Part shown: piece by piece, positions 8,430 through 42,935 of the stretch
How the letters are laid out: each line of letters starts with the position of its first letter
How positions within the stretch are numbered: position 1 is the stretch's first letter
DNA from: an uncultured Nitrososphaerales archaeon
GTDB lineage: Archaea; Thermoproteota; Nitrososphaeria; Nitrososphaerales; Nitrososphaeraceae
NCBI GenBank assembly: GCA_963695855.1
Contig: CAVOHZ010000010.1
Span: 448,001 to 512,000 of the forward strand
Direction of reading: 5' to 3'
Length of the DNA stretch: 64,000 nt
The notes under the pieces: model-generated
Told to the model about the DNA's origin: nothing
Database searches by the model: none
The model's input: the letters and a program-made list of their open reading frames with translations, nothing else
Position numbers and translations under genes: made by a program

Positions 8430-8581
8430 GAAATAATTCTGTTATGTATTTAAAGAAGACTGAACAATGTTAATAGATATTTATTATATTTTTATGTATT
8501 GATATAATACGAAATAACTCTGTTATGTATTTAAAGAAGACTGAACAATGTTAATAGATATTTATTATATTTTTATGTATT
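8430..8581. repeat. Tandem duplication (2 x ~71 bp, 81-bp period) of the cupredoxin promoter
   Basis: GAAATAAyTCTGTTATGTATTTAAAGAAGACTGAACAATGTTAATAG... at 8430 and 8511. Confidence 0.95.
8460..8474 (-). promoter_or_regulatory. GTTAAC-N3-GTTAAC-type box upstream of TATA (second copy 8541-8555)
   Basis: Coding strand ATTAAC-ATT-GTTCAG-tcttc-TTTAAATA; TATA 29 bp before the ATG at 8425. Confidence 0.7.
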
Positions 8582-8587
8582 AGTTAA

Positions 8588-9055
8588 TAAGACTTAAGAG
8601 ATGTCTTATTTTAAATATCCATACGAAGCAGGTTTATTGATTATTGCAGAGAGACAGAATTTATTTAATGATAGACATTTTAACAAAATTAACTGAATTT
8701 GGAGAAATAAACCAATCTTCTCTTTTGCTTTATTGTAGATTAAATTTAACTAAACATAAAGAAATTTTTGATGAGTTAGAAGAAAATAAATTTATTGAAA
8801 GAACAGAGTCTTTTTTAGGAAAAAAGCTCATTATCACTTATAAAATAACTATAGAAGGACTAGAATTTTACAAGAAAATCTTAGAACCATATGAAAAATT
8901 TTTCCCAAGAAGATAACTCTGAATAAGATAATTATAAAGAACGAGGATTAATCAAAACTCATGATTGTTGTTCTTTCCCATCGGCATCATCTATTTCCAT
9001 TTTGAATTTTTTTGCTATGTATTTATTAAGATCATCTTTATCCTTTTTGAATGAT
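8588..9055 (+). repeat. Direct repeat copy 2
   Basis: Matches 7089-7557; ends just before the IS remnant. Confidence 0.95.
8644..8916 (+). CDS. Winged-HTH transcriptional regulator, copy 2 (identical protein)
   Basis: Translation identical to 7145-7417. Confidence 0.8.
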   Translation: MQRDRIYLMIDILTKLTEFGEINQSSLLLYCRLNLTKHKEIFDELEENKFIERTESFLGKKLIITYKITIEGLEFYKKILEPYEKFFPRR

Positions 9056-9149
9056 GTATTTGCAAGAGAGTAGTTTGAGTACTCCCCTTATCGATTTGTC
9101 TATATTTAAAAAGGCTCTATTTAATTAAGCAAAATTTGGGAGAAATATT

Positions 9150-10192
9150 AAAAACTCACCAAAATTGGCCACAGTAACGATATTGATTTTCTAAATCCTC
9201 TGCTTGTATGATGATACGTTGTCTGTTCTGATGACCAGATCTTGTGGTATTATGTTCTTGTGTGTTACCAGAGCATTTTCTATCGATATTATAGCGTTCT
9301 CTTTTACTACAGACAGATCAAAACAGTAATCAATCCATTCCATTGTGAATAAATCAAATACATTGAATAGGTAAACCCATCTATCAATACCACAGTGTAG
9401 GAAGGTATGATCTACTTCCCATACCTGGTTTGGTTGCCTACTCTTACATAGGATCCTTTTGATCGTATAATTTCCTTCTTACTTTTAGATGATGTAATAT
9501 AACCCGTCTTTCTGAAGATTCTCTGTATCCTCTTTCTGTCGATTGGTCTACCTAATAGTGTGTCAAAATTGCATTATAGCTATTCTTCTTGTATCATAAT
9601 AAGTTGGTCTTGGTAGTGCTGCAGTGACTGCAGCGACTCGCGCAATATGATTTGTATGATATTTCTTCTGTTCGCTGTGCCGATTGTTGTTGTAGTACGT
9701 ATTTTTACTACAACCAGAATATGTCAGTGTCTTTAAGACCCATCGTACCGTTGTTTAATATTGTTCTGATCACTGCTAACCTTTTCTTCCTGTTTCTAAC
9801 GTTTCTTTAAATGCATCTATTGCTATTGTCTGTTCACCAATAATCTTCTTTAGTCTCTCAATCTCTCTGCTTCTTTGTTATTTTTTATTCGTATTGTATT
9901 TATTGCAAGCTGAAAGTGCCATCCTACCACAATCTATGAATTTCTGTTTCCAGTTGTAGAACACGTCTCGAATGAGATTCTATTTTCTTCACAATTCAGC
10001 TACCGTGATATTTGTAGTCAATGATTCCATTACAATCCCTGTCTTGTCTTCTGGTGTACATCTTCCAGTAATATTCTCTTTCTTTATCTTTAACACCCTG
10101 CACCTGCATGACCTCATTCTATACTTGTTATAATGATAGGAGTAAAAGAGTGTCCATTACAAGATGTTCTCATTTTCAATGGGTCCAGACTA
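9150..10192 (-). mobile_element. Degenerate IS3-like insertion sequence (orfA/orfB remnants)
   Basis: Broken frames give orfA-like TPEDKTGIVMESLTTNITVAEL..FYNWKQKF..EIERLKKIIGEQTI and orfB-like RKRIQRIFRK..QPNQVWEVDHTFLHCGIDRWVYLFNVFD; many stops; boundaries approximate. Confidence 0.75.
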
Positions 10193-10948
10193 ATTTTTTA
10201 TTATCAAGAGTGTATTTGAAAGATCGATTCAATGGACTATCATGTTTTTCATTTTCTATTACATTCTTTGCTTCAAAATATTCTAACCTTTTTTGATCTC
10301 ATCACAGTCATAACCAATATAAGTCAAATTTTTTTGATATGTATGTTCCCTCAAAATTTTGGTGTCTCGATTCAAATTTAGCAACAAATATATCAATATT
10401 ATTTAGTTCAACAAAAAGAGTAATAATATCAATTATTCGTAAATAGACTTTGTATTTCTAGTACTAATTACTTCAACGTAATTTTAACTTGAAAGATAGA
10501 ATATCTGTTATCTCAATTACAATATATTATACAGTTTCCATATCTTTGCTAAAACGATATCCTGAGATTGAAAAACAATGTGACTTTTTTATTCTTATGT
10601 TGATTATGATCTGGTTATAAACAACATAATAAATATCATTTAAATTTATATTTAAAAAATAGTATAAGTTAATAGGTAAAAATTGTATTATCATGTATTC
10701 TATGATACAGAAAAATAATCTAAATGGGTATAATATTTAGCTTCCACTAAGTTAGTCAAAAATCTATTAGTAATAACTTCATAGCAATTAAGTATATGTT
10801 AAGATAACACCAATAAAAAAAGTCATCAGATGAATACTAGTTTCTTGAATTACCCTCATTTTTGATATTTATAATTATTTGTAATCATGTCAATTTATTT
10901 TCAGTCTAATTTCTTTCAAATAATTAAACCTACTAAAATAAATATAAA

Positions 10949-11785
10949 TCATGATGCTTGGATATTTACTATGCCTGTTTTTGCAAGTTCAGAACCTATA
11001 CCATATCCTACTAACGCTATACCGGTTCCTAGTCCCGCCATTTCTATTCCACCTTTGATCCAGTTTTTTTTTGCTAGACGAGCCTTTATGGCACCAATCA
11101 CAAATGAAGAAACAATACTCATAACAATAGCTAATCCAATCCCAGTCATAGATGACATTATTCCAGCTTTAACTACAAAATAAGGCATTATTGGAAGGAT
11201 GCCTCCTAATAGAAATGAACCAAACATCACCAAGGCACCTTTTAATGGGCTCCCTAGAATGTCTAAATTAAGCCCTATTTCCTCAGTCAACATAGTCTGG
11301 AGCCATACTTCTTTGTTTGAGGTTATCTTTTCTACAATTTTCTCGAGATCCTCTCCTTCAAATCCTTTTGCACGGTAAATGTTTTCGATCTCCAGTCTTT
11401 CTTCATCAGGTCTATTTTCTATCTCGTATTCTTCACGTTTTATTTCTGATTCTAATATTTCCCTTTGCGATTTTACAGCAAGGTAATTCTGGACAGCCAT
11501 TGCCTTAGCCCCTGTAAACATTCCTATTAATGCAGCAAGAATGACAACATCGGCTGTAATTACAGCTCCTCCTACACCCGCTACAATTCCTAAGGAAGTG
11601 TTAACACCATCTCCAAAGCCGAATACAAAATCTCGTATGTAATTACTTTCTTTGATATGTGGTTCTGGATGTATATTAAAATTAATCAACATAAATGTAA
11701 TAATTTCCAATTTATTAAATGTAACTAATATATGGAATTTTACTATGAATCTATTCCGGATAATCAAGAAATTTATATCCATCAA
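10949..11785 (-). CDS. VIT1/CCC1-family Fe/Mn transporter (true start probably ~11692)
   Basis: YIRDFVFGFGDG, MAVQNYLAVKSQRE, MLTEEIGL, SFLLGGILP. Confidence 0.9.
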   Translation of the reverse strand: MMDINFLIIRNRFIVKFHILVTFNKLEIITFMLINFNIHPEPHIKESNYIRDFVFGFGDGVNTSLGIVAGVGGAVITADVVILAALIGMFTGAKAMAVQNYLAVKSQREILESEIKREEYEIENRPDEERLEIENIYRAKGFEGEDLEKIVEKITSNKEVWLQTMLTEEIGLNLDILGSPLKGALVMFGSFLLGGILPIMPYFVVKAGIMSSMTGIGLAIVMSIVSSFVIGAIKARLAKKNWIKGGIEMAGLGTGIALVGYGIGSELAKTGIVNIQAS

Positions 11786-16644: not shown

Positions 16645-16659
16645 ATTAACTTGATTAAC
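16645..16659 (+). promoter_or_regulatory. GTTAAC-N3-GTTAAC-type box upstream of TATA
   Basis: ATTAAC-TTG-ATTAAC-taata-TTTATATT; ATG 33 bp after the TATA start. Confidence 0.5.
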
Positions 16660-16697: not shown

Positions 16698-16841
16698 ATG
16701 GAAACGAAATATATTTATGAAATTAATTCAAAAGCATATGATCAAGATACATACAATACTAGATTATATCCTCAAAATTATATTCAATCAGTTTTTCCCG
16801 TTGAAAAAAGTTATCTAGAAATAGATCAAGTTTCAAGTTAA
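16698..16841 (+). CDS. 47-aa small protein upstream of patatin (not in ORF track)
   Basis: METKYIYEINSKAYDQ...EIDQVSS*; preceded by box plus TATA. Confidence 0.45.
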   Translation: METKYIYEINSKAYDQDTYNTRLYPQNYIQSVFPVEKSYLEIDQVSS

Positions 16842-16870
16842 ATAATTGCAGGAAGTCAATAAATTCGATC

Positions 16871-17971
16871 ATGGATAAGGAATCATATAAAGAAACAGTC
16901 CTTATAATGCAAGGAGGAGGATCACTAGGTTCTTATGAATGTGGTGTGTACAAAGTTTTAGAAAAACATAATATAAAATTTGACATAATCGCTGGTACGT
17001 CTATTGGTGCTATCAATGCCTCTATTATAGCCGGGACAAAGACTGATACTCCAGCACTTGCACTAGAAGATTTTTGGTATTCATTAGCAGAAAACTCGAC
17101 ATCATCATATTTTTCAGACGAACTGCGATCTTATTATTCATCCATGTACGCAGCAATTTTTGGCAATCCTAACGTCTTCATCCCGATCTGGCTCAAACCC
17201 TTTTCATACTATTCTTATATAAATTCAAATTATATTTATGATCTTGCTCCATTAAAAAACAAAATCACTGAATACGTAGATTTTGAGAGGATTACAACGG
17301 ATTCTAGTCCACGGCTCATCTTAACAGCCACCGATATCCAAAAAGGTGAATTGATAAAATTTGATAGCAAAAAAGATAGGATTGATCTGAATACTATGCT
17401 TGGATGTGTTGGTTTTCCTTTCTACGGGATTAAATGGACAAGAAAAGATGACAAATACCTTTGGGACGGCGCACTTGAAAGTAATACACCAATAAAAGCA
17501 ATAATGGATTCTTCTCCTAAATTCAATAAACTCGTATACATGATTAATCTATTTCCTCGGGTTCAGGCTGAACTACCAAAAAACCTGTTAGAAGTATGGC
17601 ATAGAGCACGAGATATTATATATAGTGATAAAACACAGTCAAATGTTGATATTTATAATTCTATTTCAGAATATATTTTTCTCTTAAAGGAAATGAATGA
17701 AATAATATCAAATAATGAATCTTGTCTGGACTTTGAAGCAAAATTCAAATTTAAAAAAATACAAAAATTGTACAATAAACTAGCAGTTGATAGGGGTGCA
17801 ATATTAGAAAAAATAATTCGAATAGAGCGAACAGAAAAAATTCACTTCCTTTTCGAAGATGTAGATTTTTCTTTAAAGACGATAAAAAAACTAATAAAAC
17901 AGGGGGAACATGATGCAGAATTAGAAATATCCAAACAAAAAGGTGAAAATCCACTCTTTCTAACCGTGTAA
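16871..17971 (+). CDS. Patatin-like phospholipase
   Basis: QGGGSLG, GTSIG nucleophile, WDGA. Confidence 0.92.
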   Translation: MDKESYKETVLIMQGGGSLGSYECGVYKVLEKHNIKFDIIAGTSIGAINASIIAGTKTDTPALALEDFWYSLAENSTSSYFSDELRSYYSSMYAAIFGNPNVFIPIWLKPFSYYSYINSNYIYDLAPLKNKITEYVDFERITTDSSPRLILTATDIQKGELIKFDSKKDRIDLNTMLGCVGFPFYGIKWTRKDDKYLWDGALESNTPIKAIMDSSPKFNKLVYMINLFPRVQAELPKNLLEVWHRARDIIYSDKTQSNVDIYNSISEYIFLLKEMNEIISNNESCLDFEAKFKFKKIQKLYNKLAVDRGAILEKIIRIERTEKIHFLFEDVDFSLKTIKKLIKQGEHDAELEISKQKGENPLFLTV

Positions 17972-18592: not shown

Positions 18593-18817
18593 TTAGTTTG
18601 TAAAAATTTTGTACTTGTATACATCATTTGTATCTATACTCAAGAAAACTTCTCTGCCGTTATATCCATCAATGAATTGAACAGGAAATTGGAAGATTCG
18701 CCTTCCCCGTACAGTGATATATGCACTATCTGCCGCTATTACGTTGCCTAAAATGTTTCCATCTTTTGTCCTAACTCCTTTATGGACCAATTTATTAAAA
18801 TATGAGATTGTAGACAT
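18593..18817 (-). CDS. Small PRC-barrel-like protein, paralogue 1
   Basis: HKGVRTKDGNILGNVIA; near-identical to 40599-40817. Confidence 0.7.
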   Translation of the reverse strand: MSTISYFNKLVHKGVRTKDGNILGNVIAADSAYITVRGRRIFQFPVQFIDGYNGREVFLSIDTNDVYKYKIFTN

Positions 18818-19236
18818 TTTTAAGTCAGAAGAAGGTATATGTCAATAATTATATAACCATGAGTGAACAACGTTAACCGATACTAAACAATCATTACAAA
18901 TTTAGAATTACTAGATGACAACAAAACTCTTTATTATCAAATTAATGTTCTAGATGTTCCAAAAATAACAGGGATCCATATTCATAAAGGTAACTTGGGT
19001 GAAAATGGAGATGTATTGGTGAGTATATATAATGTAAAGGAAGACATATTTAAAAATCAAAATACAACAAAAATTTCTGAAATAGAATCTAACTCTATAA
19101 CAATTAATGGAAACAAACAAAATTCCCTCGCCGCAAGTAGAACAATCAATAACTTGGATTTGCAAGGACCCCTGAAAGGAAAGAATATTTCTGATCTGAT
19201 CACTTTAACAGAAAGTGGAGACACCTACGTGAATGT
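18602..19236. repeat. Inverted repeat of 39901-40815 with a ~300-bp internal deletion
   Basis: 18602-18890 matches the reverse complement of ~40527-40815; 18905-19236 matches the reverse complement of 39901-40229 (3-bp indel). Confidence 0.92.
18863..18877 (-). promoter_or_regulatory. GTTAAC-N3-GTTAAC-type box upstream of TATA
   Basis: GTTAAC-GTT-GTTCAC-tcatgg-TTATATAA on the coding strand. Confidence 0.75.
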
Positions 19237-19558: not shown

Positions 19559-19774
19559 TTAGATTTTGTACTTGTATGCTTCCTTCGTATCTAATGTTAG
19601 AAAAACTTCGCTTCCATTGTAAAGATCAATGAATTTTGATGGAATTTTCAGGATTTTTCTTCCTTGGACGGTTATATTTGAACCCTCAATAGCAATTACA
19701 TTTCCCAAATCGTTTCCGTCCTTTGTTCTCACACCTTTATGTACCATTCGTTCCAAGTCATGAATCGTAGACAT
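19559..19774 (-). CDS. Small PRC-barrel-like protein, paralogue 2
   Basis: HKGVRTKDGNDLGNVIA..YNGSEVFL. Confidence 0.7.
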   Translation of the reverse strand: MSTIHDLERMVHKGVRTKDGNDLGNVIAIEGSNITVQGRKILKIPSKFIDLYNGSEVFLTLDTKEAYKYKI

Positions 19775-19817: not shown

Positions 19818-19832
19818 GTTAACAAGGTTAAC
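19818..19832 (-). promoter_or_regulatory. Perfect GTTAAC-N3-GTTAAC box upstream of TATA
   Basis: GTTAAC-CTT-GTTAAC-tcata-TTTATATA on the coding strand. Confidence 0.8.
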
Positions 19833-21193: not shown

Positions 21194-21208
21194 GTTAACA
21201 AAGTTCAC
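21194..21208 (+). promoter_or_regulatory. GTTAAC-N3-GTTAAC-type box upstream of TATA
   Basis: GTTAAC-AAA-GTTCAC-ttttc-TTTATATA. Confidence 0.78.
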
Positions 21209-21774: not shown

Positions 21775-21840
21775 TAAAGAGTTATTTTCATTTTCACTCT
21801 TATTAGAACAGATTTTGTAATTTAGGTGTAAGATAAAATT

Positions 21841-28743: not shown

Positions 28744-28873
28744 TTTTTTGTGTGGCTAGTCACACAATCCACATTTTATTTTAAATTAAAATTTATTTTA
28801 TTTTAATCATTCAAAAATTTTTTGTGAAGATATTCCCATACTGGTTTATTAATAACAATTTTAATCCAAATAA

Positions 28874-29381: not shown

Positions 29382-30377
29382 ATGAGCGATAGTAAGAATA
29401 GAATCATAGTTTTTGCTTCTATACTGGGAGCAATACTGGCGACAAGTATACTGGCTCTAAACCCATCAACAATTACAAGTGCAGGTGCACAAATGGATGG
29501 AGACCAGTACGGATATGATAGGAACTATTACCAAGACGACAATAGATACGGATATGATAACCATGAAAAAAAGAGTTCTCATGGAGATATTCAGAAAATA
29601 AAGTGTGTAAACAGTAACATAAACGTCAATGGTGTAGATATTACCAAGATACCTCGAGACGACATTGCTGGTGTAGCGGCGGCAAATGAAGGAGGAACAG
29701 CAGCAGACGCAGCAAATACACAAAATGGTAACGGACTCGATAGAATAAACTTCGACAAGAATCTAGTAAACGTATGTGTAAATGTCAATGACAACGAACA
29801 GACAAAAATTACTCCTCCAGGTGAAACACCACCACCAGTAGAAGAAACAGCAACATTAACCGTAAATAAACAAGTTTTTGGTTGTACTGTTGTTATTGGT
29901 GGTGCAATGACTTGTGACCTACAAAATACTTCACCATTATGGCAGGCATGTGCCGATCCGACATCGGATATATTCGGTAACTCTTTCTGTGAAGGATTAC
30001 CAGAAGACACATTCAATATTGAAGTATTAGATGGGCAGGATAATCAAATTCGGCCCCCGTTTCAAGGATCTGCAATAGGAACAACAATTCCAAATCTGCA
30101 ACCAGGCAATTATCAAGTAAATGAGATAAAAAATCCGGATATTACTGTCGAGAACGAGTTAGTACGAAATGCAGATTCCCAAATAGGATGTCTTCTTAAC
30201 GGATTTGATGATGGCGGACAATTGTTTGCCTCATCACCGGGCATAATATATGAAGATATATGTTTTGAATATGAAGACGAACAGGGAAATGATTGCAGTA
30301 CATTGACATTAGCGCCAGGAGAAGAAAAGACATGCACAGTTAAGAACTACATACAACTTGCTTATCCCCAATCTTGA
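29382..30377 (+). CDS. Secreted surface protein with a Cys-rich beta-sandwich domain
   Basis: Signal peptide; Tyr/Asp tract; KIKCVNSNINVNG; ATLTVNK..CTVKN. Confidence 0.75.
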   Translation: MSDSKNRIIVFASILGAILATSILALNPSTITSAGAQMDGDQYGYDRNYYQDDNRYGYDNHEKKSSHGDIQKIKCVNSNINVNGVDITKIPRDDIAGVAAANEGGTAADAANTQNGNGLDRINFDKNLVNVCVNVNDNEQTKITPPGETPPPVEETATLTVNKQVFGCTVVIGGAMTCDLQNTSPLWQACADPTSDIFGNSFCEGLPEDTFNIEVLDGQDNQIRPPFQGSAIGTTIPNLQPGNYQVNEIKNPDITVENELVRNADSQIGCLLNGFDDGGQLFASSPGIIYEDICFEYEDEQGNDCSTLTLAPGEEKTCTVKNYIQLAYPQS

Positions 30378-30546
30378 TGTGACGGGGTAAACTCCACTTT
30401 TTTTTTATTTTGTTTCTAATCTGGGTTAATTAATTATTTGGGAATATACATTCCATTATCGATAAAGTCTCTTGCTAGCAATTTCTTTTTGGTTTCTTTC
30501 TCCTCTTCCGTAACCGTTACCAGTTTATCCATTGTATTCATCATCA

Positions 30547-33033
30547 TTACTCCCATGCGTTCCCCTTAAAGTCTACCTGTACTCCCTCCCTCCTTAAGGA
30601 CTCAATCCGATCCTTCGTAGGTTGGGGAGGCTGATCATTATGTGCTAACATACTATGAATAAGGTGCTGTTTGATGTCAGGAGATTCATTGTCGCAGTAG
30701 TTGCAGCCGTATAGTAATTCCATTGGTGCTCTTGTTGTCGTCTCTGTCGTCGATTCCTTGTCTTTCATATCTTTGTTATCGATTATGCCCTCAATCGATA
30801 TGAATGGGCTTATTTTGCCAAAAGGAGCAATATTTGGGCTCCGATTGTTATCGATTGGGCTAGGGGCAGTGTGGTATATTTTTACAAATTCATCTGGTGA
30901 AATCTTAGTTTTTCCCTCGTCGTTTAGTATCTGAAACCTATTTTCATCATTTAGATAATAAATAAGATTTTCCATGTTATACCCCTGACCCAATCGATAT
31001 GAAATCAACTGTGTTATTTTAGATAATATCCAATCTTCATTGATTTTTTCTGTAATTTTTTCATAAAGACCATTACTTTGTTGTGAAAGCACATCGATTG
31101 GCTTCATAATCGATATACTAGATATGCTTTCTGTGACCAATGGATAGTAAATATATTGCTTTGAGTTTATCTTGGAGTTTGTATAGTCGATTATTCCCTC
31201 GTTGACTAACTGATTTAGGAATGTTTGTTTTAGATTATCAGTCGAAATGGGTTTCTTTTTAACCTCCTTGTAAAAGTCGCAAAGTTCCCTTGTTGTTACT
31301 GCCACCACCTCTTCACATTTTTCTGATTTCTCACCCGTGTTTTGAATATCTACATGGCCATCCTTCGAATTGTAGCATGGGATGAAGACATCCCTTAAGA
31401 AGTCCAATTTAAATTTAGGCAGTCCCTCAAAATTCTGATTCATGGAAAGCACCTCCTTAAGGTCCTCGAGTTCAGCAATTACTGACGTTTCACCTTCCAG
31501 GACCAACAGTTTTCTAAGATTAAGTTTTACAACAGGAACGATATTCAGTAATGCAAAAACCCTTTTTAGAAATCTTACATCCATACCCTTGTTATGTGGT
31601 AGTTGTTTCTCCAACACGTCATTGTATGGAACCCAGACGCTTATCTTTCGGTTCTTATTTTTCTCTTTCAATTCTCTGATTTTGTGTTTTATTAGTAGGA
31701 CACACTGTTTTGTTAGGTCGATTCGTTCATTAGAGATTATTAGTTGTTCTTGAATTATATTCGGCATTCCGTAAGTTACCGCTATCAATTCGTTAGATTG
31801 TTTATACTTTTCAGGAACCATATTAGGAGACGTTGGAAGAATCCTGCTCTTTATCTCAGGCCATATCTCCCATTTTGATTCATCTTTTGCACTGCAGAAA
31901 ATACAGGCTGGCCAACCTCTAACCAATACTTTCTTAGTTTGATGACCCGTTCTGTCAGTATGATTTACAAAGTCATATTGCATCTCTCTTTTATCATGTT
32001 CCTCTGATAGGACTACCCTCACTATCTGATTTTCAGTATCTATTTCAACAACTGTAATTGCAGTTACCGACGAACTAAATCCAGGGTCAATACCTACACC
32101 ATGTAAACAACCGGAATTGATAGATAAGTCTCTGTATTTCTCTCCTAATTCTATAGCGTCTTCAATGTCTACTAGACTGAATATGTTACCTATATGGCCT
32201 GTATATTGGAGATTGTATTCTCTTTCGAATGATGGCGAGATTTTGGCCTTTTCAATATCTTCTGTTGAATATATTTTATCCAATCCATACCTGTAGTCTA
32301 ATTTGATTCTTTTATAAAGACATTCGTTTACTGGTTCTTGTTCAATAGTTTGCATAAGTCCACCTGGAGCATTTGGTGTACTAACCATTACAATGAAAGG
32401 GTTAGACTTTGCGATATAACGTTCTGATACTGCTCTTACATCTTCCTGTTGACCCTTACTAAAAAAGTCACATTCATCTAATAAAATGAATTTAGGATTA
32501 TCTAGACTTCGGAAACTATCTACATGATGACTAGGAAAACTTTCGATAGTCACACCATTTAGTTTAACAAGGGTTTCTTTTGTATCAAAGTAAATATTTA
32601 ATTGTTGAAATAAATTTTTTATTCTAGTTATTAATTTCTTTGAAAGTTCCCAATTAGGTCCAGTAACAAGTACAAATTGAGAACCCTGGTATGTATTATC
32701 TTTAAGACATAGATAGACCATATATCTTAGGAATAATTCAGTAATACCTAATCCTGTAGCCTTCAATATCCATAAATGTTTACTATCTTTTAATAATTCT
32801 ATAATCTGATTCTCATAATCAAATAATGGTTTCTCTAACCCATTTTTTTGGGGCATGCCTAATATATGATTAAAACAACATGTTCCATTAGTTGTCACAT
32901 ATTGCTTATTATGCTCTACTTTATCCCATATGTAAAATGGTTTATCTTTGAAGATTTGTAGTCTTGGATTGCTAGTATTAGAATACTGGTTCTGATTCTG
33001 TGATATTAGTTTCTGTAAGTCTTTCCATCCCAT
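30547..33033 (-). CDS. Terminase large-subunit-like ATPase fused in frame to a replication-protein-like C-terminal half
   Basis: aa 1-350: ILKATGLGITE (degenerate Walker A), ILLDE, VMVSTPN, FEREY, GIDPG; aa 351-828: unrelated region with wHTH and C2H2 finger. Confidence 0.72.
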   Translation of the reverse strand: MGWKDLQKLISQNQNQYSNTSNPRLQIFKDKPFYIWDKVEHNKQYVTTNGTCCFNHILGMPQKNGLEKPLFDYENQIIELLKDSKHLWILKATGLGITELFLRYMVYLCLKDNTYQGSQFVLVTGPNWELSKKLITRIKNLFQQLNIYFDTKETLVKLNGVTIESFPSHHVDSFRSLDNPKFILLDECDFFSKGQQEDVRAVSERYIAKSNPFIVMVSTPNAPGGLMQTIEQEPVNECLYKRIKLDYRYGLDKIYSTEDIEKAKISPSFEREYNLQYTGHIGNIFSLVDIEDAIELGEKYRDLSINSGCLHGVGIDPGFSSSVTAITVVEIDTENQIVRVVLSEEHDKREMQYDFVNHTDRTGHQTKKVLVRGWPACIFCSAKDESKWEIWPEIKSRILPTSPNMVPEKYKQSNELIAVTYGMPNIIQEQLIISNERIDLTKQCVLLIKHKIRELKEKNKNRKISVWVPYNDVLEKQLPHNKGMDVRFLKRVFALLNIVPVVKLNLRKLLVLEGETSVIAELEDLKEVLSMNQNFEGLPKFKLDFLRDVFIPCYNSKDGHVDIQNTGEKSEKCEEVVAVTTRELCDFYKEVKKKPISTDNLKQTFLNQLVNEGIIDYTNSKINSKQYIYYPLVTESISSISIMKPIDVLSQQSNGLYEKITEKINEDWILSKITQLISYRLGQGYNMENLIYYLNDENRFQILNDEGKTKISPDEFVKIYHTAPSPIDNNRSPNIAPFGKISPFISIEGIIDNKDMKDKESTTETTTRAPMELLYGCNYCDNESPDIKQHLIHSMLAHNDQPPQPTKDRIESLRREGVQVDFKGNAWE

Positions 33034-33499
33034 TGTTATTATTTACCTTACCATTACCATTATTATTAGATAATTTGTTTTTGTGTACTTCTACGAATTT
33101 AATAGAATCCTGCAGTAATGAAGCGTTAGTTAATAGGTCCATTTTAGTTGAATAGGTATCCTTTATCAGTGATAACGATTGTAGTTTCTCTTTTGTATCC
33201 CCTTCCTTTTCTGCTTTTGCTGCTATAATCCAGGATTCCTTAATGATTTCTTCCAAACCCTGCAGACATTTGTTATATTCGTACGGTAACCGTTGCTGTA
33301 TATGATTCCTTATTATCTCTATTGCCTGTTCCTTCAATAGGTCCGCATCTCTTGAAATGGTAGCCTCACTTATCTGCAGCATCCTCGATATCTCTGCCTG
33401 TGAGTATCCCTTAACTGCTAACTCCTGGACCTTACTACGACGCCACTTGAGGCGTTCTTTCATCTGTGATTTTGGACCTTTCATCTTTTCATTAGCCAA
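32978..33499 (-). CDS. HTH protein, candidate terminase small subunit
   Basis: GYSQAEISRMLQISEATISRD HTH plus helical hairpin; overlaps the TerL start. Confidence 0.6.
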   Translation of the reverse strand: MANEKMKGPKSQMKERLKWRRSKVQELAVKGYSQAEISRMLQISEATISRDADLLKEQAIEIIRNHIQQRLPYEYNKCLQGLEEIIKESWIIAAKAEKEGDTKEKLQSLSLIKDTYSTKMDLLTNASLLQDSIKFVEVHKNKLSNNNGNGKVNNNNGMERLTETNITESEPVF

Positions 33500-33602
33500 C
33501 TCTTAATACTTGCATTTAGGTTAGTAACTATAATAAGTATAGTGGATTCAACTGCCAGGACAGAAGACACATTAAGGCGATTCATAGACATACCGTTAGT
33601 AT

Positions 33603-34031
33603 ATGATAATGGTAATGACATTTAATAAAAATATAATATTTGTACTGTTGATAGCAGCATCTATCTTTTTTAATATAGTACCTGCATTAGCAGTAGAAAC
33701 AGTAGACCGGTGTACATATTATGGCGGTACTTGGGACGACACCGATACCATCTGTAATTTTGATGACCCAGAAAAGAAAGCAGTGTATGAGGCCGCCTTC
33801 CAAGCATGGCTAGCAGAGTATGAAGACGTCAATCCAACAATACTACATCTATGTGAAAGTTACGGTGGTACTTGGGACACGATAAGTAATGACTGTGTTA
33901 TTTATGACCCAGAAAAGAAAGCCGCATATGAGATAGCATATGATGTCGCCTATCAAGAATGGAAAGCAGAGATAGAGAAATCAAATCAGGAAGTAATAGG
34001 CGGATACTGTGTATTTGCAGGATGTGATTAA
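33603..34031 (+). CDS. Secreted Cys-repeat protein
   Basis: Signal peptide; two CxxYGGTWDxxxxxC..DPEKKAxYE repeats. Confidence 0.7.
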   Translation: MIMVMTFNKNIIFVLLIAASIFFNIVPALAVETVDRCTYYGGTWDDTDTICNFDDPEKKAVYEAAFQAWLAEYEDVNPTILHLCESYGGTWDTISNDCVIYDPEKKAAYEIAYDVAYQEWKAEIEKSNQEVIGGYCVFAGCD

Positions 34032-34037
34032 ATAAAG

Positions 34038-34337
34038 TTGATGACCGAATTAAAAATGGTAACAACAGCAGTTGTGATGGTGGTGTTGTTAGTAATGCCT
34101 ATGTTTTTTAATATAGCATATGCAGAAACAGAATTTGCCAAACCAACACAACAACTATGTGAAGGCCGATACTATAACGGTACTTGGACTGGTACCGATT
34201 GTATTGAAATCCCTGATCCACAAAAGGAAGCAGAGTGGGAAGTATTGAAAGTAGTGGAAGCAATGGAAGCAGAGAGAATAGCAGAAGAATGGAAACGAGC
34301 ATGTATGCTACCTGGGTCGTGTACGTTCATCAAGTGA
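34038..34337 (+). CDS. Secreted Cys-repeat paralogue
   Basis: Signal peptide; C..YYNGTW..C..DPQKEAEWE single repeat. Confidence 0.68.
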   Translation: MMTELKMVTTAVVMVVLLVMPMFFNIAYAETEFAKPTQQLCEGRYYNGTWTGTDCIEIPDPQKEAEWEVLKVVEAMEAERIAEEWKRACMLPGSCTFIK

Positions 34338-34344
34338 ATGCAGT

Positions 34345-34464
34345 ATGGCCATCATAAAAGTCGATGCCTTCAAGTGTAACGTCTGCGGCCACATCTGGAT
34401 CCCGTGCTGGTCCACGGTAATAGGTTCAAGTTGTTCGTGTACCATTAGCGATTTTTCCAAATAA
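34345..34464 (+). pseudogene. Truncated Zn-ribbon ORF
   Basis: MAIIKVDAFKCNVCGHIWIP, then sequence with no recognisable motif. Confidence 0.35.
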
Positions 34465-34652
34465 TCTTAATTGTTGTCATTTTCTTACTATTCACTCTCC
34501 CAGATGTTATCTTTAAAGTCTACGTGAATACAAAAAGTTGTAAATTCAAAAGAACAAGCCTTACAATACTTTGCAGACTTCGACCATAAGGATTGCATGG
34601 TTAAGGCCTTTTATAACTCCAAACTAGAAGTACTATACAATTTTGTATTACC

Positions 34653-34790
34653 TATATGACCATCTGGTACATATGACCGAATTTTCATTCCCATTTTTTT
34701 TAAATTATTATCATTCATGATTATCATCCATTTTTTTTACCATTCTCAAACTGGTCATATACACCAGATAGTCATATGACCTATATGACC
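34653..34790. repeat. Origin-like inverted repeats (ATATGACC units) around an AT-rich spacer
   Basis: 34653-34678 versus the reverse complement of 34753-34778: 22/26 identical; 74-bp AT-rich spacer; extra units to 34790. Confidence 0.7.
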
Positions 34791-37037
34791 TCATGTCAAT
34801 ACCTCATTTCCACTGGAACTTTCTTCATCTTCTGTTCCAATTTTTGCAACAACATACTTTAGTGTCTTGGGTTTTAGGCTTACTGTTCTAACGTTCAAGG
34901 TCTCCCCTAACCTATCTATAATATCTTGAAGAGATTTATTGGTGTCAAGGGTCCATTTATCCTTCAAGTATTCTTTGATAACTGTTTTTCGTTCGGCTGC
35001 TTGCTTGCATAGTTCATGTACTGTAAATTCTACACCTGCATTTTCATGCAAAATAACATGAAATTCCTCAATTACTACGTCCCTGGGGTCCGATACACTA
35101 TCCACTATTGCGCCGTACTGTTGGAACATCAATTTCATAAGGTTCATTGTTTTGGTTGCTATCATGTCGTCAACCGTCCAGGACATGTTTAATTTGGCCT
35201 GTGCTTCTGCTATCCTCTGAATAAAGTCGAATGTTCTGTTAGAGGCTACACCCTTTAATTTCGCATTAACCCAGAATTGATTAAGTCGTTTTTGAGAATA
35301 ACCAGTCCATTTAGGTACAATACCTTTAACATGTTCCAGGTATTTATTCAGAAATCTATAGTTGTGTGGCTTCCTATTCTTTATCTTGGTTTTTTCTTCT
35401 GTGTAGTGAGTTAATTCCTCCTTAGTTTCAAAGTCAAAGAATGCATAAACCTGGTCGAACCTATTCAATAGATTTTTCTTTATTGGAATCTTTGAATTTG
35501 ATATTTTATCCTTGGAATCCCATGTCATATTTACGGGGTTGGTTGTTGCTATAACTGTAGTAGGTGCATCTATCTCAAAATGTCTGCTATATCTTTCCAG
35601 TGTACAACGGCCTTCCTCTACTATCTCATCAAAATACTTTTGGTCCTCATAATCCATTACTCCAATCTCGTTTATTACTACATGCGAATTCTTTGCAAGG
35701 ACTAGTACCCCATACGATACGGATAGACTGTTATCGTTATCTTTTTCTACAATTCCTATTAGAGATTTACCGTTAATTCCAGATGCAGTAACATATTTAG
35801 AATTAGGATTTATCCTTGTTGACTCTTTACCTAACACAGATTTGGAGGTACCCAGGTCTCCAACCAGTAACGTGTTTATCCTTCCCCTCCTACCGTTATC
35901 AATACCACTGATTTTATTTCCTCCAACTACAGAACGTAAAATACCTATCTTCTTATCATTATGACCTACTACATTGGGTGCAAACATAGAGACAACTATC
36001 TGTTCAAACGTCATTGGTTTAACGTAGTGTTTACATGCTGGACATTTAGGATATTTCTTAATTAGTTCAAAATCCTTCTTATATTTCTCATCACAGACAT
36101 CCTTCCATCTCTTGATAACATCCACGTCTTTTTCAGTTAATTGTATTTTCTCTTTGCTCCTTGATACTATGTTCCGGCTATGAAGTACATTGATTAGTTT
36201 TTTAGACCTCTCACCAGAACCTGGCTGAATTCTTATGTTTCCTCTTATATCTACAATTTCACCAGAAACTATATTATCAATTGCATCTCCATACAAAATG
36301 ACGTGAAGTCTATCATATTGGTCTTCGATATTTTCGATATCGTCTAACCATATTTTCTTGGCCTTTATGGTTTCTTTAGTTATTTCAAATCCTGTACTTT
36401 TACATCTGAAACATACAGACGTTGGTGAGTTTGTAGCAACACTGAAAATCTTGGGAAGATATTCTAATGGAAAATCATCAAAAGATTGGGAACCCTGGTT
36501 ATCACAGTCCAACGCAGCACATTTCCAATCCAACTTGGTTATAGCCTTGTATGTGATTGTTATTCCTGATATCCTACCTGTTACCAGTGCAGGCCCTTCC
36601 TCAGGTGTTCTGATTGCCTCTATAACAGATATAGGCCTATTTTCCTGTTCCTCACGTTCTTTTTGTTCTTTTTGTATTTGTTCCTGTATACTCTGATTTA
36701 ATTTGTAAATATTATATTCTTTAATAGTATGAATCATCTTTTCTTTGTTAATCTCTAAATGAAGAACTTCAATGATACAACCTGTGTCAAATGAATCAAT
36801 ATTATATTCTTCATCTAGTTTTTTGATAAGATATTCAATATTCTCGTTTTTTACATCGCCAAATTTATCAAATGTAATAGGGAATATTATTAATGGGATT
36901 TCGTTGTGTACCCCATTCAACTTCAAAAGGCCTTCATTTGATTCTCCATTAAAATCAAATCTTTCTATGGTTTCATCTTCTACTAGTCTGGGAGTAAGTT
37001 CCAGGGCAACAATAAATTCTTTAGTGGTAGTAGTCAT
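34791..37037 (-). CDS. mcm: Element-encoded MCM-family helicase
   Basis: Zn finger C..C/CFRC, FAPNVVG, RGRINTLLVGDLGTSKS, INE (Walker B variant), TTNP, LLNRFD, RIAEAQAKL. Confidence 0.88.
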   Translation of the reverse strand: MTTTTKEFIVALELTPRLVEDETIERFDFNGESNEGLLKLNGVHNEIPLIIFPITFDKFGDVKNENIEYLIKKLDEEYNIDSFDTGCIIEVLHLEINKEKMIHTIKEYNIYKLNQSIQEQIQKEQKEREEQENRPISVIEAIRTPEEGPALVTGRISGITITYKAITKLDWKCAALDCDNQGSQSFDDFPLEYLPKIFSVATNSPTSVCFRCKSTGFEITKETIKAKKIWLDDIENIEDQYDRLHVILYGDAIDNIVSGEIVDIRGNIRIQPGSGERSKKLINVLHSRNIVSRSKEKIQLTEKDVDVIKRWKDVCDEKYKKDFELIKKYPKCPACKHYVKPMTFEQIVVSMFAPNVVGHNDKKIGILRSVVGGNKISGIDNGRRGRINTLLVGDLGTSKSVLGKESTRINPNSKYVTASGINGKSLIGIVEKDNDNSLSVSYGVLVLAKNSHVVINEIGVMDYEDQKYFDEIVEEGRCTLERYSRHFEIDAPTTVIATTNPVNMTWDSKDKISNSKIPIKKNLLNRFDQVYAFFDFETKEELTHYTEEKTKIKNRKPHNYRFLNKYLEHVKGIVPKWTGYSQKRLNQFWVNAKLKGVASNRTFDFIQRIAEAQAKLNMSWTVDDMIATKTMNLMKLMFQQYGAIVDSVSDPRDVVIEEFHVILHENAGVEFTVHELCKQAAERKTVIKEYLKDKWTLDTNKSLQDIIDRLGETLNVRTVSLKPKTLKYVVAKIGTEDEESSSGNEVLT

Positions 37038-37354
37038 TGGAAAAATGTCTCCAACTTTTGAATTTTATCTAGAATTTTGTTTGTGTCTGATTTACAATTT
37101 GCGATTGATTTTTGTGTTGATTTAAGTTCTTCCTGCAGTATTTGATAGTCTGAATGTAGTATCCAACATGTCGAACATTTACATTTTTTTCTAGCAGTTG
37201 AATTATTTTCTAGAGCAAAACTTTTATGTTCTGCAGTTCCAATACAACCTGGAAGTTCATTAGTTCGTCTAGGTTGACCTTCTCTTTTCATGTAGTCATA
37301 GGTTCCGTCACCTGATTTTGTGGCGGGACTTTTGATCTTTTTATTTAATCTCAA
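37034..37354 (-). CDS. Hypothetical protein coupled to MCM
   Basis: ATGA overlap with the MCM start; CKCSTC. Confidence 0.55.
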   Translation of the reverse strand: MRLNKKIKSPATKSGDGTYDYMKREGQPRRTNELPGCIGTAEHKSFALENNSTARKKCKCSTCWILHSDYQILQEELKSTQKSIANCKSDTNKILDKIQKLETFFQ

Positions 37355-37669
37355 AAAGTGTTACGCCTCCCGACAGATACAGATTTTGAATGCACTAAAG
37401 ATTTGTCAGTCACTACAGGCAAAGTATTAAATCCTGTAGCCAACCAACGCCGAGAGGGATAGGAGTGTAATGATATTTTGAAGTTTTGTTAAATTTTGTG
37501 GAAATTTATGAATTTCTGTAAGCGTAGTTTGTGCGTAACTATTGATATCAGTACAAACCTTTAAAAATGAATATTTTATATCATCCATTTAGCGTTCGTC
37601 TCCGGTGTCTGCGTGGGATAATGCTTTTATGCTCGGCGGAGTGCTTGCCGCCCGGGCTACCTTTTATTA

Positions 37670-37855
37670 TCATTCCTGGGGACTAGTCTCCACTTTTTTT
37701 CTAAATTCTATTAGTTCATGAACCCTTTCGCTAAAGGTTTGATCCTTCCTGGTTTCAGAAACTAATTCGTTATAAACCTCAGGTCTTAACCCGATGTTTT
37801 TTCTGATTTGATGTTCTTTCAACAACATTATTTTCATATAGTGGTGTAAATTCAT
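37670..37855 (-). CDS. RHH/antitoxin-like DNA-binding protein
   Basis: KNIGLRPEVYNELVSETRKDQTFSERVHELI. Confidence 0.6.
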   Translation of the reverse strand: MNLHHYMKIMLLKEHQIRKNIGLRPEVYNELVSETRKDQTFSERVHELIEFRKKVETSPQE

Positions 37856-39851: not shown

Positions 39852-40454
39852 TTATGTTATTTGACCTCTGATTTCGCCATCAGGATTAGATTCGCTATGA
39901 ACATTCACGTAGGTGTCTCCACTTTCTATTAAAGTGATCAGATCAGAAATATTCTTTCCTTTCAGGGGTCCTTGCAAATCCAAGCTATTGATTGTACCAC
40001 TTGCGAGGGAATTTTGTTTGTTTCCATTAATTGTTATAGAGTTAGATTCTATTTCAGAAATTTTTGTTGTATTTTGATTTTTAAATATGTCTTCCTTTAC
40101 ATTATATATACTCACCAATACATCTCCATTTTCACCCAAGTTACCTTTATGAATATGGATCCCTGTTATTTTTGGAACATCTAGAACATTAATTTGATAA
40201 TAAAGAGTTTTGTTGTCATCTAGTAATTCAAAAGACGTGCTTCCGATACCAGTTGTTTTAATGGGTGGTACCTGTTCGTTTCCAGTTAATGTCGCCGTAT
40301 ATTTATATTTTAGACTGTTGCTTTCATCTAGGTTTTTTCCGCTTTGCCCTTGACCATAAGCTAAGATGTTAGTATTTGATAAAAGCAATAACATCAATAT
40401 TCCCACAGAAAAAAATACTGTGGATATCACTAGACGTGTTTTATTTTTGTCCAT
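39852..40454 (-). CDS. Secreted CHRD-domain protein
   Basis: LTGNEQVPP, GIHIHKG, YVNVHSESNPDGEIRGQ. Confidence 0.9.
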   Translation of the reverse strand: MDKNKTRLVISTVFFSVGILMLLLLSNTNILAYGQGQSGKNLDESNSLKYKYTATLTGNEQVPPIKTTGIGSTSFELLDDNKTLYYQINVLDVPKITGIHIHKGNLGENGDVLVSIYNVKEDIFKNQNTTKISEIESNSITINGNKQNSLASGTINSLDLQGPLKGKNISDLITLIESGDTYVNVHSESNPDGEIRGQIT

Positions 40455-40488: not shown

Positions 40489-40503
40489 TTGAACTTTGTT
40501 AAC
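40489..40503 (-). promoter_or_regulatory. GTTAAC-N3-GTTAAC-type box upstream of TATA (CHRD)
   Basis: GTTAAC-AAA-GTTCAA-taatt-TTTAAATA. Confidence 0.75.
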
Positions 40504-40538: not shown

Positions 40539-40553
40539 GTTAACGTAGTTTAC
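40539..40553 (+). promoter_or_regulatory. GTTAAC-N3-GTTAAC-type box upstream of TATA
   Basis: GTTAAC-GTA-GTTTAC-taatgg-TTATATAA. Confidence 0.75.
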
Positions 40554-40598: not shown

Positions 40599-40817
40599 AT
40601 GTCTACAATCTCATATTTTAATAAATTGGTCCATAAAGGAGTTAGGACAAAAGATGGAAACATTTTAGGCAACGTAATAGCGGCAGATAGTGCATATATC
40701 ACTGTACGGGGAAGGCGAATCTTCCAATTTCCTGTTCAATTCATTGATCTATATAACGACACACAAGTTTTCTTGAGTATAGATACAAATGAATTATACA
40801 AGTACAAAATTTTTTAG
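40599..40817 (+). CDS. Small PRC-barrel-like protein, paralogue 3
   Basis: Near-identical to 18593-18817. Confidence 0.7.
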   Translation: MSTISYFNKLVHKGVRTKDGNILGNVIAADSAYITVRGRRIFQFPVQFIDLYNDTQVFLSIDTNELYKYKIF

Positions 40818-41191: not shown

Positions 41192-41362
41192 TCATATATT
41201 TTGAATATAAAGTTTATTTTTTCTGCAAATAGGACATTTGCCAATATCACATTCACCTTTTAAAATAGTTGCACACCAATAACACGAGTTACAAAATACA
41301 AATTCACAATTATTTCTATTATAAAATTTTTTATTCACAGTAATAGTTTTATTATGATACAT
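41192..41362 (-). CDS. 56-aa Zn-ribbon protein (not in ORF track)
   Basis: FCNSCYWCAT...CPIC; preceded by box plus TATA. Confidence 0.7.
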   Translation of the reverse strand: MYHNKTITVNKKFYNRNNCEFVFCNSCYWCATILKGECDIGKCPICRKNKLYIQNI

Positions 41363-41405
41363 TGTCACTCAATAGTTACTTCTTTCTTTAATTATATATC
41401 TATTA

Positions 41406-41420
41406 GTTAACTACGTTAAC
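41406..41420 (-). promoter_or_regulatory. Perfect GTTAAC-N3-GTTAAC box upstream of TATA
   Basis: GTTAAC-GTA-GTTAAC-taatag-ATATATAA. Confidence 0.78.
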
Positions 41421-41765
41421 ATAGTACAAAATTAGAAATAAGAATATTTGATTATTTTATAAAGTACATTGATTTCAATAAAATCTTCAAAAAAAGATTA
41501 TGATTTACAGAAAAACATTAACGTTGATAATTCTCAGTTAGGATAATTATTCTTAATCGTCCAGTCTAATATACAAAAAGGTGATCGTCAGATCTTGTCA
41601 ATTTGGTTTCTTATCTTGTCTGGGATATGTCAAATGGTTCTAAAATCATTTATTGATATTGTTAAGGGATTATTACGAGAAATCAATTTCGTGTTCGTAA
41701 CTATTATAGATCCACAAGATGGGTTCACAGACTACAGCTAGATATACAACTCACGAACAAAATAT

Positions 41766-42404
41766 TCATATTAAATTCTTGAATCCTTCTACTACATATT
41801 GAACAGCAATTGCAGCTATTATTATTGCAAATACTCGCGAAATAATTAAAGAACCTCGATTACCCAATAATTTATAGATTGGATTTATAAGACGAAATAC
41901 AAAATACGTCATCAATAAAACTATTATTATAGAGATTATGGTTACTGCAAATCCACTAGTTTGAAATGTTATTATCACAGTTGTGATGGCTCCAGGACCA
42001 GCCAATAATGGAAATGCAATAGGTACAACACCAGTTTCGTCTGTAGCTGAAGTTTTATTGAATCTCCATTCACCATAGGTTAACAGCTCTATCGCGATTA
42101 TAAATAAAAGGGCACCTCCAGCAATCATAAAACTAAATATTGTGATCCCAAAAATATCTAGAATTTGTTTACCAGCTATTCCAAATATTATTAATAAAAT
42201 TAAAGCAGTTAAAATTGCTGTCTTTGAAACAAGTTGTCTATCTTTTATTTCCAGTTTCTGTGTGAGAGAAATGAAGATTGGAATATTTCCGATAGGATTT
42301 ATAACTACGAAAAGCGCAATGATTGATTTTAATAGATCGCCATGAAATGCATTCAAAAAACTACCTATTTCAATTAAAAAAGAACTAAACACATCTGATA
42401 ACAA
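41766..42404 (-). CDS. marC: MarC-family membrane protein
   Basis: INPIGNIP, FMIAGGALL, VPIAFPLLAGPGAIT. Confidence 0.92.
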   Translation of the reverse strand: MLSDVFSSFLIEIGSFLNAFHGDLLKSIIALFVVINPIGNIPIFISLTQKLEIKDRQLVSKTAILTALILLIIFGIAGKQILDIFGITIFSFMIAGGALLFIIAIELLTYGEWRFNKTSATDETGVVPIAFPLLAGPGAITTVIITFQTSGFAVTIISIIIVLLMTYFVFRLINPIYKLLGNRGSLIISRVFAIIIAAIAVQYVVEGFKNLI

Positions 42405-42659
42405 GGTTAACTGAAATATAATTTCCTATTTGCTATTTTTAAATATTATGTCGGATACACGCTAAATTATTTACTAGATTTTGTTTGACACAATATAGAC
42501 AAATTTAATAAATTTAGTCAAAATGTTCATTTAAGTAATACTAAAAAAACTATATATCGTAATACTGGAATGTGTTAAATATGTAAACAGGCTAAAACAT
42601 ACCTAATTAACTTACAAATTCCATCTATAGATATACAGAATATGATTGAATTATGCATT

Positions 42660-42755
42660 TATTTTATTTATCTCCATAACTGATTCATATCACATGGATA
42701 GCAAGAGTGGATTTTCACATTTTTGTTTGCGTATTTCTAATTCTGCATCATGTTC
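42660..42755 (-). pseudogene. Remnant of the patatin 3' end (inverted copy of ~17906-18000)
   Basis: Reverse complement reads GAACATGATGCAGAATTAGAAATA..AAACAAAAA.GTGAAAATCCACTCTT, as at 17906. Confidence 0.75.
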
Positions 42756-42920
42756 AACTTATTGATTGCTTTTTTGTTTTCATTAAATAAAAATCTAAGT
42801 CTTAACTGAATTCTTTCCAATTTTTGTAAATAATAATCTATTAAAATAAAAAAATAGAATAGAACGGCAATAATGATTAATATAATTATCAGAAGAATTG
42901 GAATATAGTATGGTTATACA

Positions 42921-42935
42921 ATTAACATTGTTCAA
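42921..42935 (+). promoter_or_regulatory. GTTAAC-N3-GTTAAC-type box upstream of TATA
   Basis: ATTAAC-ATT-GTTCAA-ccata-TTAATAAA; ATG at 42970. Confidence 0.65.

Follow-up and report, generated by a model that had tools for sequence, protein, structure and literature searches.

RESULTS

A box at a fixed distance from TATA in ten places of the window

The DNA analysed here, called the window throughout, is a stretch of 64,000 nucleotides (C10:448001-512000; assembly GCA_963695855.1, contig CAVOHZ010000010.1) from the genome of an uncultured Nitrososphaerales archaeon (3.55 Mb, 31% G+C, 11 contigs). Our subject is a 15-bp palindrome, the box, which stands before genes for cupredoxins, a patatin-like phospholipase, a CHRD-domain protein and several small proteins. 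An initial annotation had described the pattern RTTAAC-N3-GTTHAV (RTTAACNNNGTTHAV), fixed 5-6 bp upstream of the TATA element, in nine promoters. All nine sites, together with a duplicate at 8541, were verified in position and in sequence. Eight of the nine carry the pattern; the box at 16645 (ATTAACttgATTAAC) falls outside it and fits only a looser version, which has 15 matches in the window against 2.39 expected. RTTAAC-N3-GTTHAV itself gave 11 strand-matches, corresponding to nine loci, two of which are perfect palindromes and are thus matched on both strands; 0.32 matches were expected from dinucleotide-preserving shuffles of the window, and at least 11 were found in none of 100 shuffles. 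With the 16645 variant the window holds ten boxes, six at 8.4-21.2 kb and four at 40.4-42.9 kb. The gap between box and TATA is 5 or 6 bp in 10 of 10, the box covering 6-21 bp upstream of the TATA start. The boxes and the genes behind them, with Pfam annotation from a search of the 65 open reading frames (ORFs) of the window that was accompanied by a composition profile, are as follows (aa, amino acids):

8460..8474, minus strand: box ATTAACattGTTCAG; spacer 8455-8459; TATA TTTAAATA at 8447-8454; ATG at 8425
8541..8555, minus strand: tandem duplicate (81-bp) of the 8460 box and TATA; TATA at 8528-8535; no ORF of its own, reads into the 8460 promoter
7527..8425, minus strand: target unit, cupredoxin 7916-8425 (Pfam Cupredoxin_1, 1e-08) and 109-aa membrane protein 7527-7856
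16645..16659, plus strand: box ATTAACttgATTAAC; TATA TTTATATT at 16665-16672; ATG at 16698
16698..17971, plus strand: target unit, 47-aa ORF 16698-16841 and patatin-like phospholipase 16871-17971 (Pfam Patatin, 1.1e-22)
18863..18877, minus strand: box GTTAACgttGTTCAC; TATA TTATATAA at 18849-18856; ATG at 18817; duplicate of the 40539 promoter
18593..18817, minus strand: target, 74-aa member of the 72-aa VRTKDG family
19818..19832, minus strand: perfectly palindromic box GTTAACcttGTTAAC; TATA TTTATATA at 19805-19812, on one side only; ATG at 19774
19559..19774, minus strand: target, 71-aa member of the 72-aa VRTKDG family; orthologues in G014, G035 and G012 boxed
21194..21208, plus strand: box GTTAACaaaGTTCAC; TATA TTTATATA at 21214-21221; ATG at 21253; identical box at the G014 orthologue
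21253..22947, plus strand: target, cupredoxin 21253-21774, then NHL-repeat protein 21841-22947 (Pfam)
40489..40503, minus strand: box GTTAACaaaGTTCAA; TATA TTTAAATA at 40476-40483; ATG at 40454
39852..40454, minus strand: target, secreted CHRD-domain protein (Pfam CHRD, 1.7e-25)
40539..40553, plus strand: box GTTAACgtaGTTTAC; TATA TTATATAA at 40560-40567; ATG at 40599; divergent from the CHRD promoter
40599..40817, plus strand: target, 72-aa VRTKDG-family protein
41406..41420, minus strand: palindromic box GTTAACgtaGTTAAC; TATA ATATATAA at 41392-41399; ATG at 41362 (GTG at 41368)
41192..41368, minus strand: target, 56-58-aa CxxC...CxxC zinc-ribbon-like protein; no Pfam match at the threshold used
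42921..42935, plus strand: box ATTAACattGTTCAA; TATA-like TTAATAAA at 42941-42948; ATG at 42970
42970..43203, plus strand: target, 77-aa ORF, family not recognised

On the coding strand the octamers that follow the boxes are TTTAAATA, TTTATATA, TTTATATT, TTATATAA, ATATATAA or TTAATAAA. Their placement 29-39 bp before a start codon holds: the distances from TATA start to ATG at the nine sites are 29, 33, 39, 38, 39, 29, 39, 37 and 29 bp, the copy at 8541 being without an ORF, and the ATGs open ORFs of 47-200 aa. The GTG at 42952 is too near the TATA to be the start of the 77-aa ORF. Each of the perfectly palindromic boxes, 19818 and 41406, has a TATA and an ORF on a single side.

Outside box and TATA, the ten sites are A+T-rich and share 20-49% ungapped identity. 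The exceptions are the pairs 8460/8541 and 18863/40539, the same two that had been named as the only non-independent ones, and the eight remaining promoter contexts have in common only box and TATA. The box-TATA spacers are not purine-rich; ordinary promoters of the genome likewise lack a signal of the transcription factor B (TFB) recognition element (BRE). No box was found at 44-64 kb, the housekeeping region from which it had been said to be missing, apart from a single loose match inside a gene at 56263.

The targets had been called unrelated. They are less so than claimed, because 18593-18817, 19559-19774 and 40599-40817 encode paralogous proteins of a single 72-aa family, in which the motif VRTKDG is invariant, whereas the flanks of the 19818 promoter are independent. 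The family matched no Pfam family (DUF2171, E 0.046) and no solved structural relative; a PRC-barrel-like fold is only an impression. Beyond the window, boxed composites precede a zinc-ribbon paralogue, a 215-aa cupredoxin-like protein, a 201-aa secreted protein, a C2H2 zinc-finger protein and two divergently placed cupredoxins, one with a degenerate box. At L005 (G000 C8:555710-555752) tandem boxes CTTAACTTCGTTTAC, 28 bp apart, share one TATA and are followed by a 46-aa ORF. Only 5 of the 19 cupredoxin-domain genes of the genome have a box.

The enriched feature is the geometry

Genome-wide, the dyad occurs at 25 loci with a half-site spacer of 3, against 2-15 across spacers of 0-12, and 9 of the 25 loci lie in the window (binomial P 3e-10). 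We then counted matches over the whole genome on a grid of half-site spacers from 0 to 8 and distances of 2-10 to a TATA-like octamer. The cell for spacer 3 and TATA distance 5-6 held 14 matches (13 distinct sites), against a mean of 0.31 and a maximum of 2 in the 72 cells with other spacers. This combination is the sole enriched geometry genome-wide. The hexamer GTTAAC alone is neither avoided nor enriched (observed/expected 0.96), so it is the geometry that is special and not the word. Avoidance of GTTAAC as a restriction site was rejected on the same figure.

Alignment of 804 TATA-like upstream regions of long ORFs gave no information from -26 to -1, and the box is therefore no part of ordinary promoters. 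Sites with three mismatches were not above background genome-wide (11 against 5-10 for other spacers), which sets the end of detection at about two mismatches. The genome scan, with its strict TATA patterns, gives too low a count and passed over boxed promoters in G012, G017 and G018. In place of the island-wide regulon of the initial annotation we find a genus-wide one, with about 8-12 more sites elsewhere in the genome.

The element is conserved in the genus and polar relative to TATA

As a composite pattern we used the box, 5-6 bp and a TATA-like octamer, with the reversed pattern as control. It was found in 17 of 18 other genomes of the genus, with 136 matches against 7 for the reversed control; 12 genomes from 12 other genera of the order gave 1 match. 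A scan of 81 genomes of the family (the tally includes G107, on which none of our claims depends) returned several matches per genome only in g1, the genus of the window; two genomes of the sister genus g18 had 3 and 1, and in the other 16 genera there was at most one match per genome, which is the control level.

Because pattern matches are selected for the box, searches that start from the genes were added. Seven of seven loci of 72-aa gene homologues, found by protein search, carry GTTAAC-N3-GTTAAC with 0-1 mismatch at -57 to -62, and in 10 unique promoters of this family the information peaks are the two half-sites and the TATA, with N3 spacer and flanks drifting. CHRD orthologues (complete genes with at least 55% identity to the window protein) have a box-like 15-mer at -49 to -58 in 4 of 4 cases; among paralogue-level matches (33-47%) the count is 0 of 18. 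The fixed half-sites amid drifting spacers and flanks, and the presence of the box at CHRD orthologues and not at paralogues, indicate selection on the box itself.

Other targets agree. Orthologues of the cupredoxin, zinc-ribbon and 215-aa genes carry the box in G012, G014, G003 and G017, the promoter orthologous to 8460 is boxed in G012, and the zinc-ribbon site at 41406 has both a boxed paralogue (C6:182925) and a boxed G014 orthologue. The pair of cupredoxin and 109-aa membrane protein recurs in G012, G017, G010 and genus g18, and 44-73 kb of G012 C15 mirrors the window in gene content and box clustering. G016 (97% complete) has neither a box match nor the 72-aa gene. The idea of a real, positionally fixed cis-element common to unrelated promoters is thus borne out by boxed orthologous genes in other species.

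So is the constancy of the distal half-site beside a variable proximal one. By hand count, the fourth base of the TATA-proximal half is C, T or G in about 127 of the 145 matches, and the TATA-distal half keeps TTAAC in the composite matches. The mirror arrangement, with the variable half distal, gave 5 matches in 31 genomes against 5 for the reversed control, and at least some of these are the same boxes read from the opposite strand. The fourth-base bias and the control-level mirror count together make the element polar relative to TATA.

A winged-helix protein as candidate regulator

Two copies of the same 90-aa winged-helix protein are encoded next to the first boxed operon:

7145..7417, plus strand: candidate regulator, copy 1; convergent with the boxed cupredoxin operon
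8644..8916, plus strand: candidate regulator, copy 2; divergent from the boxed promoters 8460/8541

The initial annotation had already pointed to this winged-helix protein. No other DNA-binding protein could be recognised in the conserved cluster, and its distribution and its neighbourhood in two genera make the winged-helix protein the best candidate. By sequence it falls short of the Pfam family HTH_45 (23.9 bits, cut-off 25.5), and a search of the Protein Data Bank gave E 0.92. Its AlphaFold model (pLDDT, the predicted local distance difference test, 80.2) has a winged helix-turn-helix plus a C-terminal helix, with 1xma as best Foldseek match (E 4.5e-4, TM 0.76-0.79). The predicted fold thus resembles small regulators of the PadR and MarR winged-helix types.

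Homologues of 50-60% identity occur throughout the family, and orthologues of at least 73% identity were found only in g1 and g18, the genera with convincing boxes. In a tree of 24 sequences these orthologues group as one clade (support 99/97), whose long stem measures 0.57 substitutions per site; a second paralogue of g1 falls elsewhere, and the 63% homologue that is all G016 has lies outside the clade on a long branch.

Box and close orthologue were both searched, and the orthologue found, in 12 g1 genomes. No more than about 1.5 kb separates the gene from a box in 8 of the 12 (G000, G001, G002, G010, G012, G015, G017 and G018); in G003 the distance is 7 kb, and in G013, G014 and G032 the gene is on another contig. 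Both g18 genomes have it about 1 kb from a box and convergent to a boxed cupredoxin-plus-membrane-protein operon, as at 7145-8474. In G000, G002 and G018 the gene and a boxed promoter are divergently arranged.

As for the copies in the window, they stand 1499 bp apart and have about 52 bp of upstream sequence in common. The duplicated gene and the 81-bp tandem of the cupredoxin promoter indicate a recent local rearrangement.

The module also heads a hairpin RNA unit in two relatives

The box-plus-TATA module (ATTAACATTGTTCACYGATTTTTAAATAT) also stands at the head of a non-coding unit that G010 and G018 have in multiple copies, at these loci:

G010: L012, L015-L018, L021, L022, L026, L027
G018: L038, L041, L042, L044, L046, L047

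At least 15 copies were fetched across the two relatives. A conserved 5' part of about 45 nt is followed by a long, near-perfect hairpin (CCATGGCC...GGCTATGG), and the unit has neither an ORF nor a match in Rfam. When copies are folded singly, z is -2.4 to -4.4. The RNAalifold consensus of 16 copies is weak (6 pairs, 1 compensatory change) because the alignment loses the register of the stem. A search of the genome of the window with nhmmer returned two weak matches to the hairpin part only (E 1e-3), and the family is therefore essentially not found there.

RNA-library contigs lie on the boxed units

Four metatranscriptome runs from four studies were found with positions 16000-23000, and their contigs were aligned to 7000-23000. 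Contigs lie on the target ORFs of all five boxed units in this range (7556-8232; 16919-17100; 18559-18814; 19558-19765; 21260-21848, plus pieces in the NHL gene), several pieces having 0-1 differences to the window. They record presence only, giving neither starts nor strand nor level; their ends are not transcript ends, DNA carry-over is possible, and the uncovered stretches (the winged-helix genes, VIT1) are no sign of silence.

Two further observations come from these contigs. One of run X4 links 20075 back to 19564 (it "goes back 512", window 19564-20075), a junction suggesting that a related strain has the locus in rearranged form. Contigs touching the DDE transposase at 12167-12940 (minus strand), in the box-rich flank, are loose-ended on both sides, as expected for a gene with copies in other organisms.

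A box-free block, probably an integrated element, splits the cluster

The initial annotation had drawn a single box island over 8460..42935, but its core is box-free. The stretch 24129..37855 has a higher G+C (33-37%) and encodes a P450, a tyrosine integrase (25663-27000), a DEAD helicase, an MCM helicase (34791-37037) and a VapB-like protein. This block, probably an integrated element of the MCM type, divides the box cluster in two and is no part of the regulon. A search for direct repeats gave no convincing ends, and Rfam at the gathering threshold, run on the window and on the loci of eight relatives, found a single tRNA, at 6659-6732, far from the element.

Outside this block there are traces of duplication. 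At 18896-19279 (plus strand) lies a 5'-truncated CHRD copy (residues 73-199), 90% identical to 39852-40454 and adjoining the duplicated 72-aa-gene promoter at 18863; this copy is what is left of an inverted duplication in which the divergent CHRD/72-aa module was copied. A perfect 55-bp tandem duplication, 22947-23056, directly follows the NHL-repeat gene.

DISCUSSION

Conservation, spacing and polarity, all read from DNA sequence, make it very probable that the box is a cis-regulatory site bound by a protein. Its consensus, RTTAAC-N3-GTTNAC, would be what a sequence-specific and probably dimeric transcription factor recognises, at a constant 5-6 bp upstream of TATA and directly upstream of the contact between TFB and BRE. 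In archaeal promoters the TATA centre lies near -26, which would place the box at roughly -51 to -36 from the expected start. Regulators bound there (SurR, TrmBL1, Ptr2, TFB-RF1) usually stimulate the recruitment of TFB and TATA-binding protein (TBP). By this position rule of characterised regulators, activation is favoured, and the bound factor would most likely aid TFB/TBP loading, the box being an upstream activating site. The rigid spacing and the polarity are consistent with a defined contact between the factor and the initiation complex, and since TTAAC is invariant in the distal half and the fourth base variable in the proximal one, the complex of factor and promoter would be asymmetric. 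The regulon would comprise some of the membrane-anchored cupredoxins, the CHRD protein, the patatin-like lipase, the 72-aa family and small zinc-ribbon and C2H2 proteins, with the multi-copy hairpin RNA behind the same module in some relatives. Taken as a whole, an activating transcription-factor site upstream of BRE/TATA, serving a small genus-level regulon and with the winged-helix protein as best candidate, is the reading that we hold to be somewhat probable. For its parts our confidence differs: whether the box activates is, to us, an evenly balanced question, and the naming of the 7145-7417/8644-8916 protein as the factor is tentative, a possibility suggested by gene distribution and neighbourhood.

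Several points weigh against this reading. The match counts overstate the number of independent events, because the genomes of the genus are kin and many of the matches in G010 and G018 come from paralogous copies of a single RNA unit. The candidate regulator is not found wherever the box is: G004 (90% complete, 7 boxes) and G005 (97%, 4 boxes) have nothing closer than a paralogue of about 54% identity, and no match came from G006, G008 and G011, with assembly gaps possible. Its restriction to g1 and g18 may partly reflect distance, because the tree took only the best match per outside genus, and its closeness to the box may be plain synteny with the cupredoxin operon. The promoter of the winged-helix gene has no box, and a palindrome before it, TAAGAC-N9-GTCTTA, was dropped as an operator since it is not conserved. 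Finally, the box is placed just upstream of the BRE position, like archaeal activator sites, and the TATA boxes beside it are strong and near-consensus rather than weak, which is unusual in this genome, where 62 of 2008 long-ORF upstream regions have a consensus TATA octamer at -28 to -43. Activator-dependent archaeal promoters usually have weak core elements.

Strong promoters held by a repressor are therefore a real alternative, in which a dimer on the box blocks TFB from BRE until a signal releases it. The proximal half-site does abut the BRE position, and the nearest structural relatives of the candidate, the PadR and MarR types, are mostly repressors. Known archaeal repressors, however, mostly overlap TATA/BRE or the start, factors upstream of BRE such as SurR, TrmBL1 and Ptr2 usually activate, and a polar, fixed distance to TATA suits contact with the initiation complex better than simple occlusion. 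The contigs on target genes in four studies weakly suggest, too, that these genes are not generally silent in the field. We consider repression unlikely.

The same rigid distance and orientation might mean that the box is an extended core promoter, read by a TFB (or TBP) paralogue with no separate regulator. The genome has 14 matches to TFIIB cyclin repeats at seven loci, and spacers are conserved within target families (for example TAATRR or YGATTT). This reading, a form of which the initial annotation had offered as an alternative TFB, is nevertheless highly improbable by itself, as the C-terminal helix-turn-helix of TFB reads about 6-7 bp upstream of TATA and the box extends over 6-21 bp; a dyad of two hexamers is typical of a dimeric factor, and no TFB gene lies within the conserved box cluster. 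Nor is it likely, by a wide measure, that the boxes are passengers of duplicated or mobile promoter cassettes, alike by descent and without a dedicated regulator. Two duplicate pairs in the window, three paralogous targets and the repeat unit under the same module in G010 and G018 are what such cassettes would leave behind. Set against them are eight window contexts that are alike only in box and TATA, half-sites that stay fixed across species as spacer and flanks drift, and CHRD orthologues that keep the box where paralogues have none.

To our knowledge, gene regulation in ammonia-oxidising archaea is almost unreported, and in this uncultured low-G+C soil genus entirely so. The box is a sharply defined cis-element for which conserved targets and a candidate regulator can be listed, and a sequence handle for co-regulated genes in soil metatranscriptomes. 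The targets include cupredoxins of the electron-carrier type, and the regulon may for this reason bear on the copper-dependent respiration of nitrifiers. A more doubtful extension would have a fast-evolved, lineage-specific PadR-like protein read the oriented, TATA-locked box to run a genus-level programme of membrane-anchored cupredoxins, small metal-binding proteins and the 72-aa family in soil ammonia oxidisers, the multiplied hairpin RNA unit having captured the module. If true, this extension would supply the first triple of regulator, site and regulon for terrestrial ammonia-oxidising archaea, plus a small-RNA arm.

A full-text search of the published literature returned no description of the box, and the GTTAAC matches examined are primers. 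The closest counterparts are the archaeal upstream activating sites of Ptr2 (M. jannaschii), TFB-RF1 (P. furiosus) and the Sulfolobus ara-box, which are likewise short, fixed, directly upstream of BRE/TATA and confined to few promoters; the box differs from them in sequence, in its strong TATA and in its host, an uncultured genus of the Nitrososphaeraceae. A BRE lies within about 7 bp upstream of TATA, and the box, at 6-21 bp, is placed differently from BRE or alternative-TFB elements. The SurR site of Thermococcales is GTT-N3-AAC, and its position relative to BRE/TATA sets activation or repression. GTT and AAC triplets around a 3-bp spacer are common to both, but GTTAAC-N3-GTTNAC has them in the inverse order, AAC-N3-GTT, and there is no sign of an ArsR-like redox switch. 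With small regulators of the PadR family (1xma, LmrR, Rv3488) the candidate shares, by prediction, a winged helix plus C-terminal helix in about 90-110 aa, without a significant sequence match to solved structures (E 0.92).

Within the same family, copper-responsive genes of Nitrososphaera viennensis, for cupredoxin-type and unknown secreted proteins, have motifs 35-70 bp before their start codons, according to the excerpt of the study consulted (PMC7785015). The motifs given in that excerpt (TTCSGSMTTTGWACYANT; RATTTAAABATAGATTTAAATAATAAS) differ from the box when the consensus sequences are compared by eye (PMC7785015), and the composite is at background in genera other than g1 and g18. Operators of RbkR in Thaumarchaeota, a comparative-genomics prediction as excerpted from PMC5397151, are TTAC-N10-GTAA: again the palindromic site of a winged-helix regulator in the same phylum, with different half-sites, spacing and regulon (riboflavin genes) as far as this excerpt describes them (PMC5397151). 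Among these systems, the box probably joins the known class of archaeal factor sites upstream of BRE/TATA, as a real, conserved and oriented cis-regulatory element.

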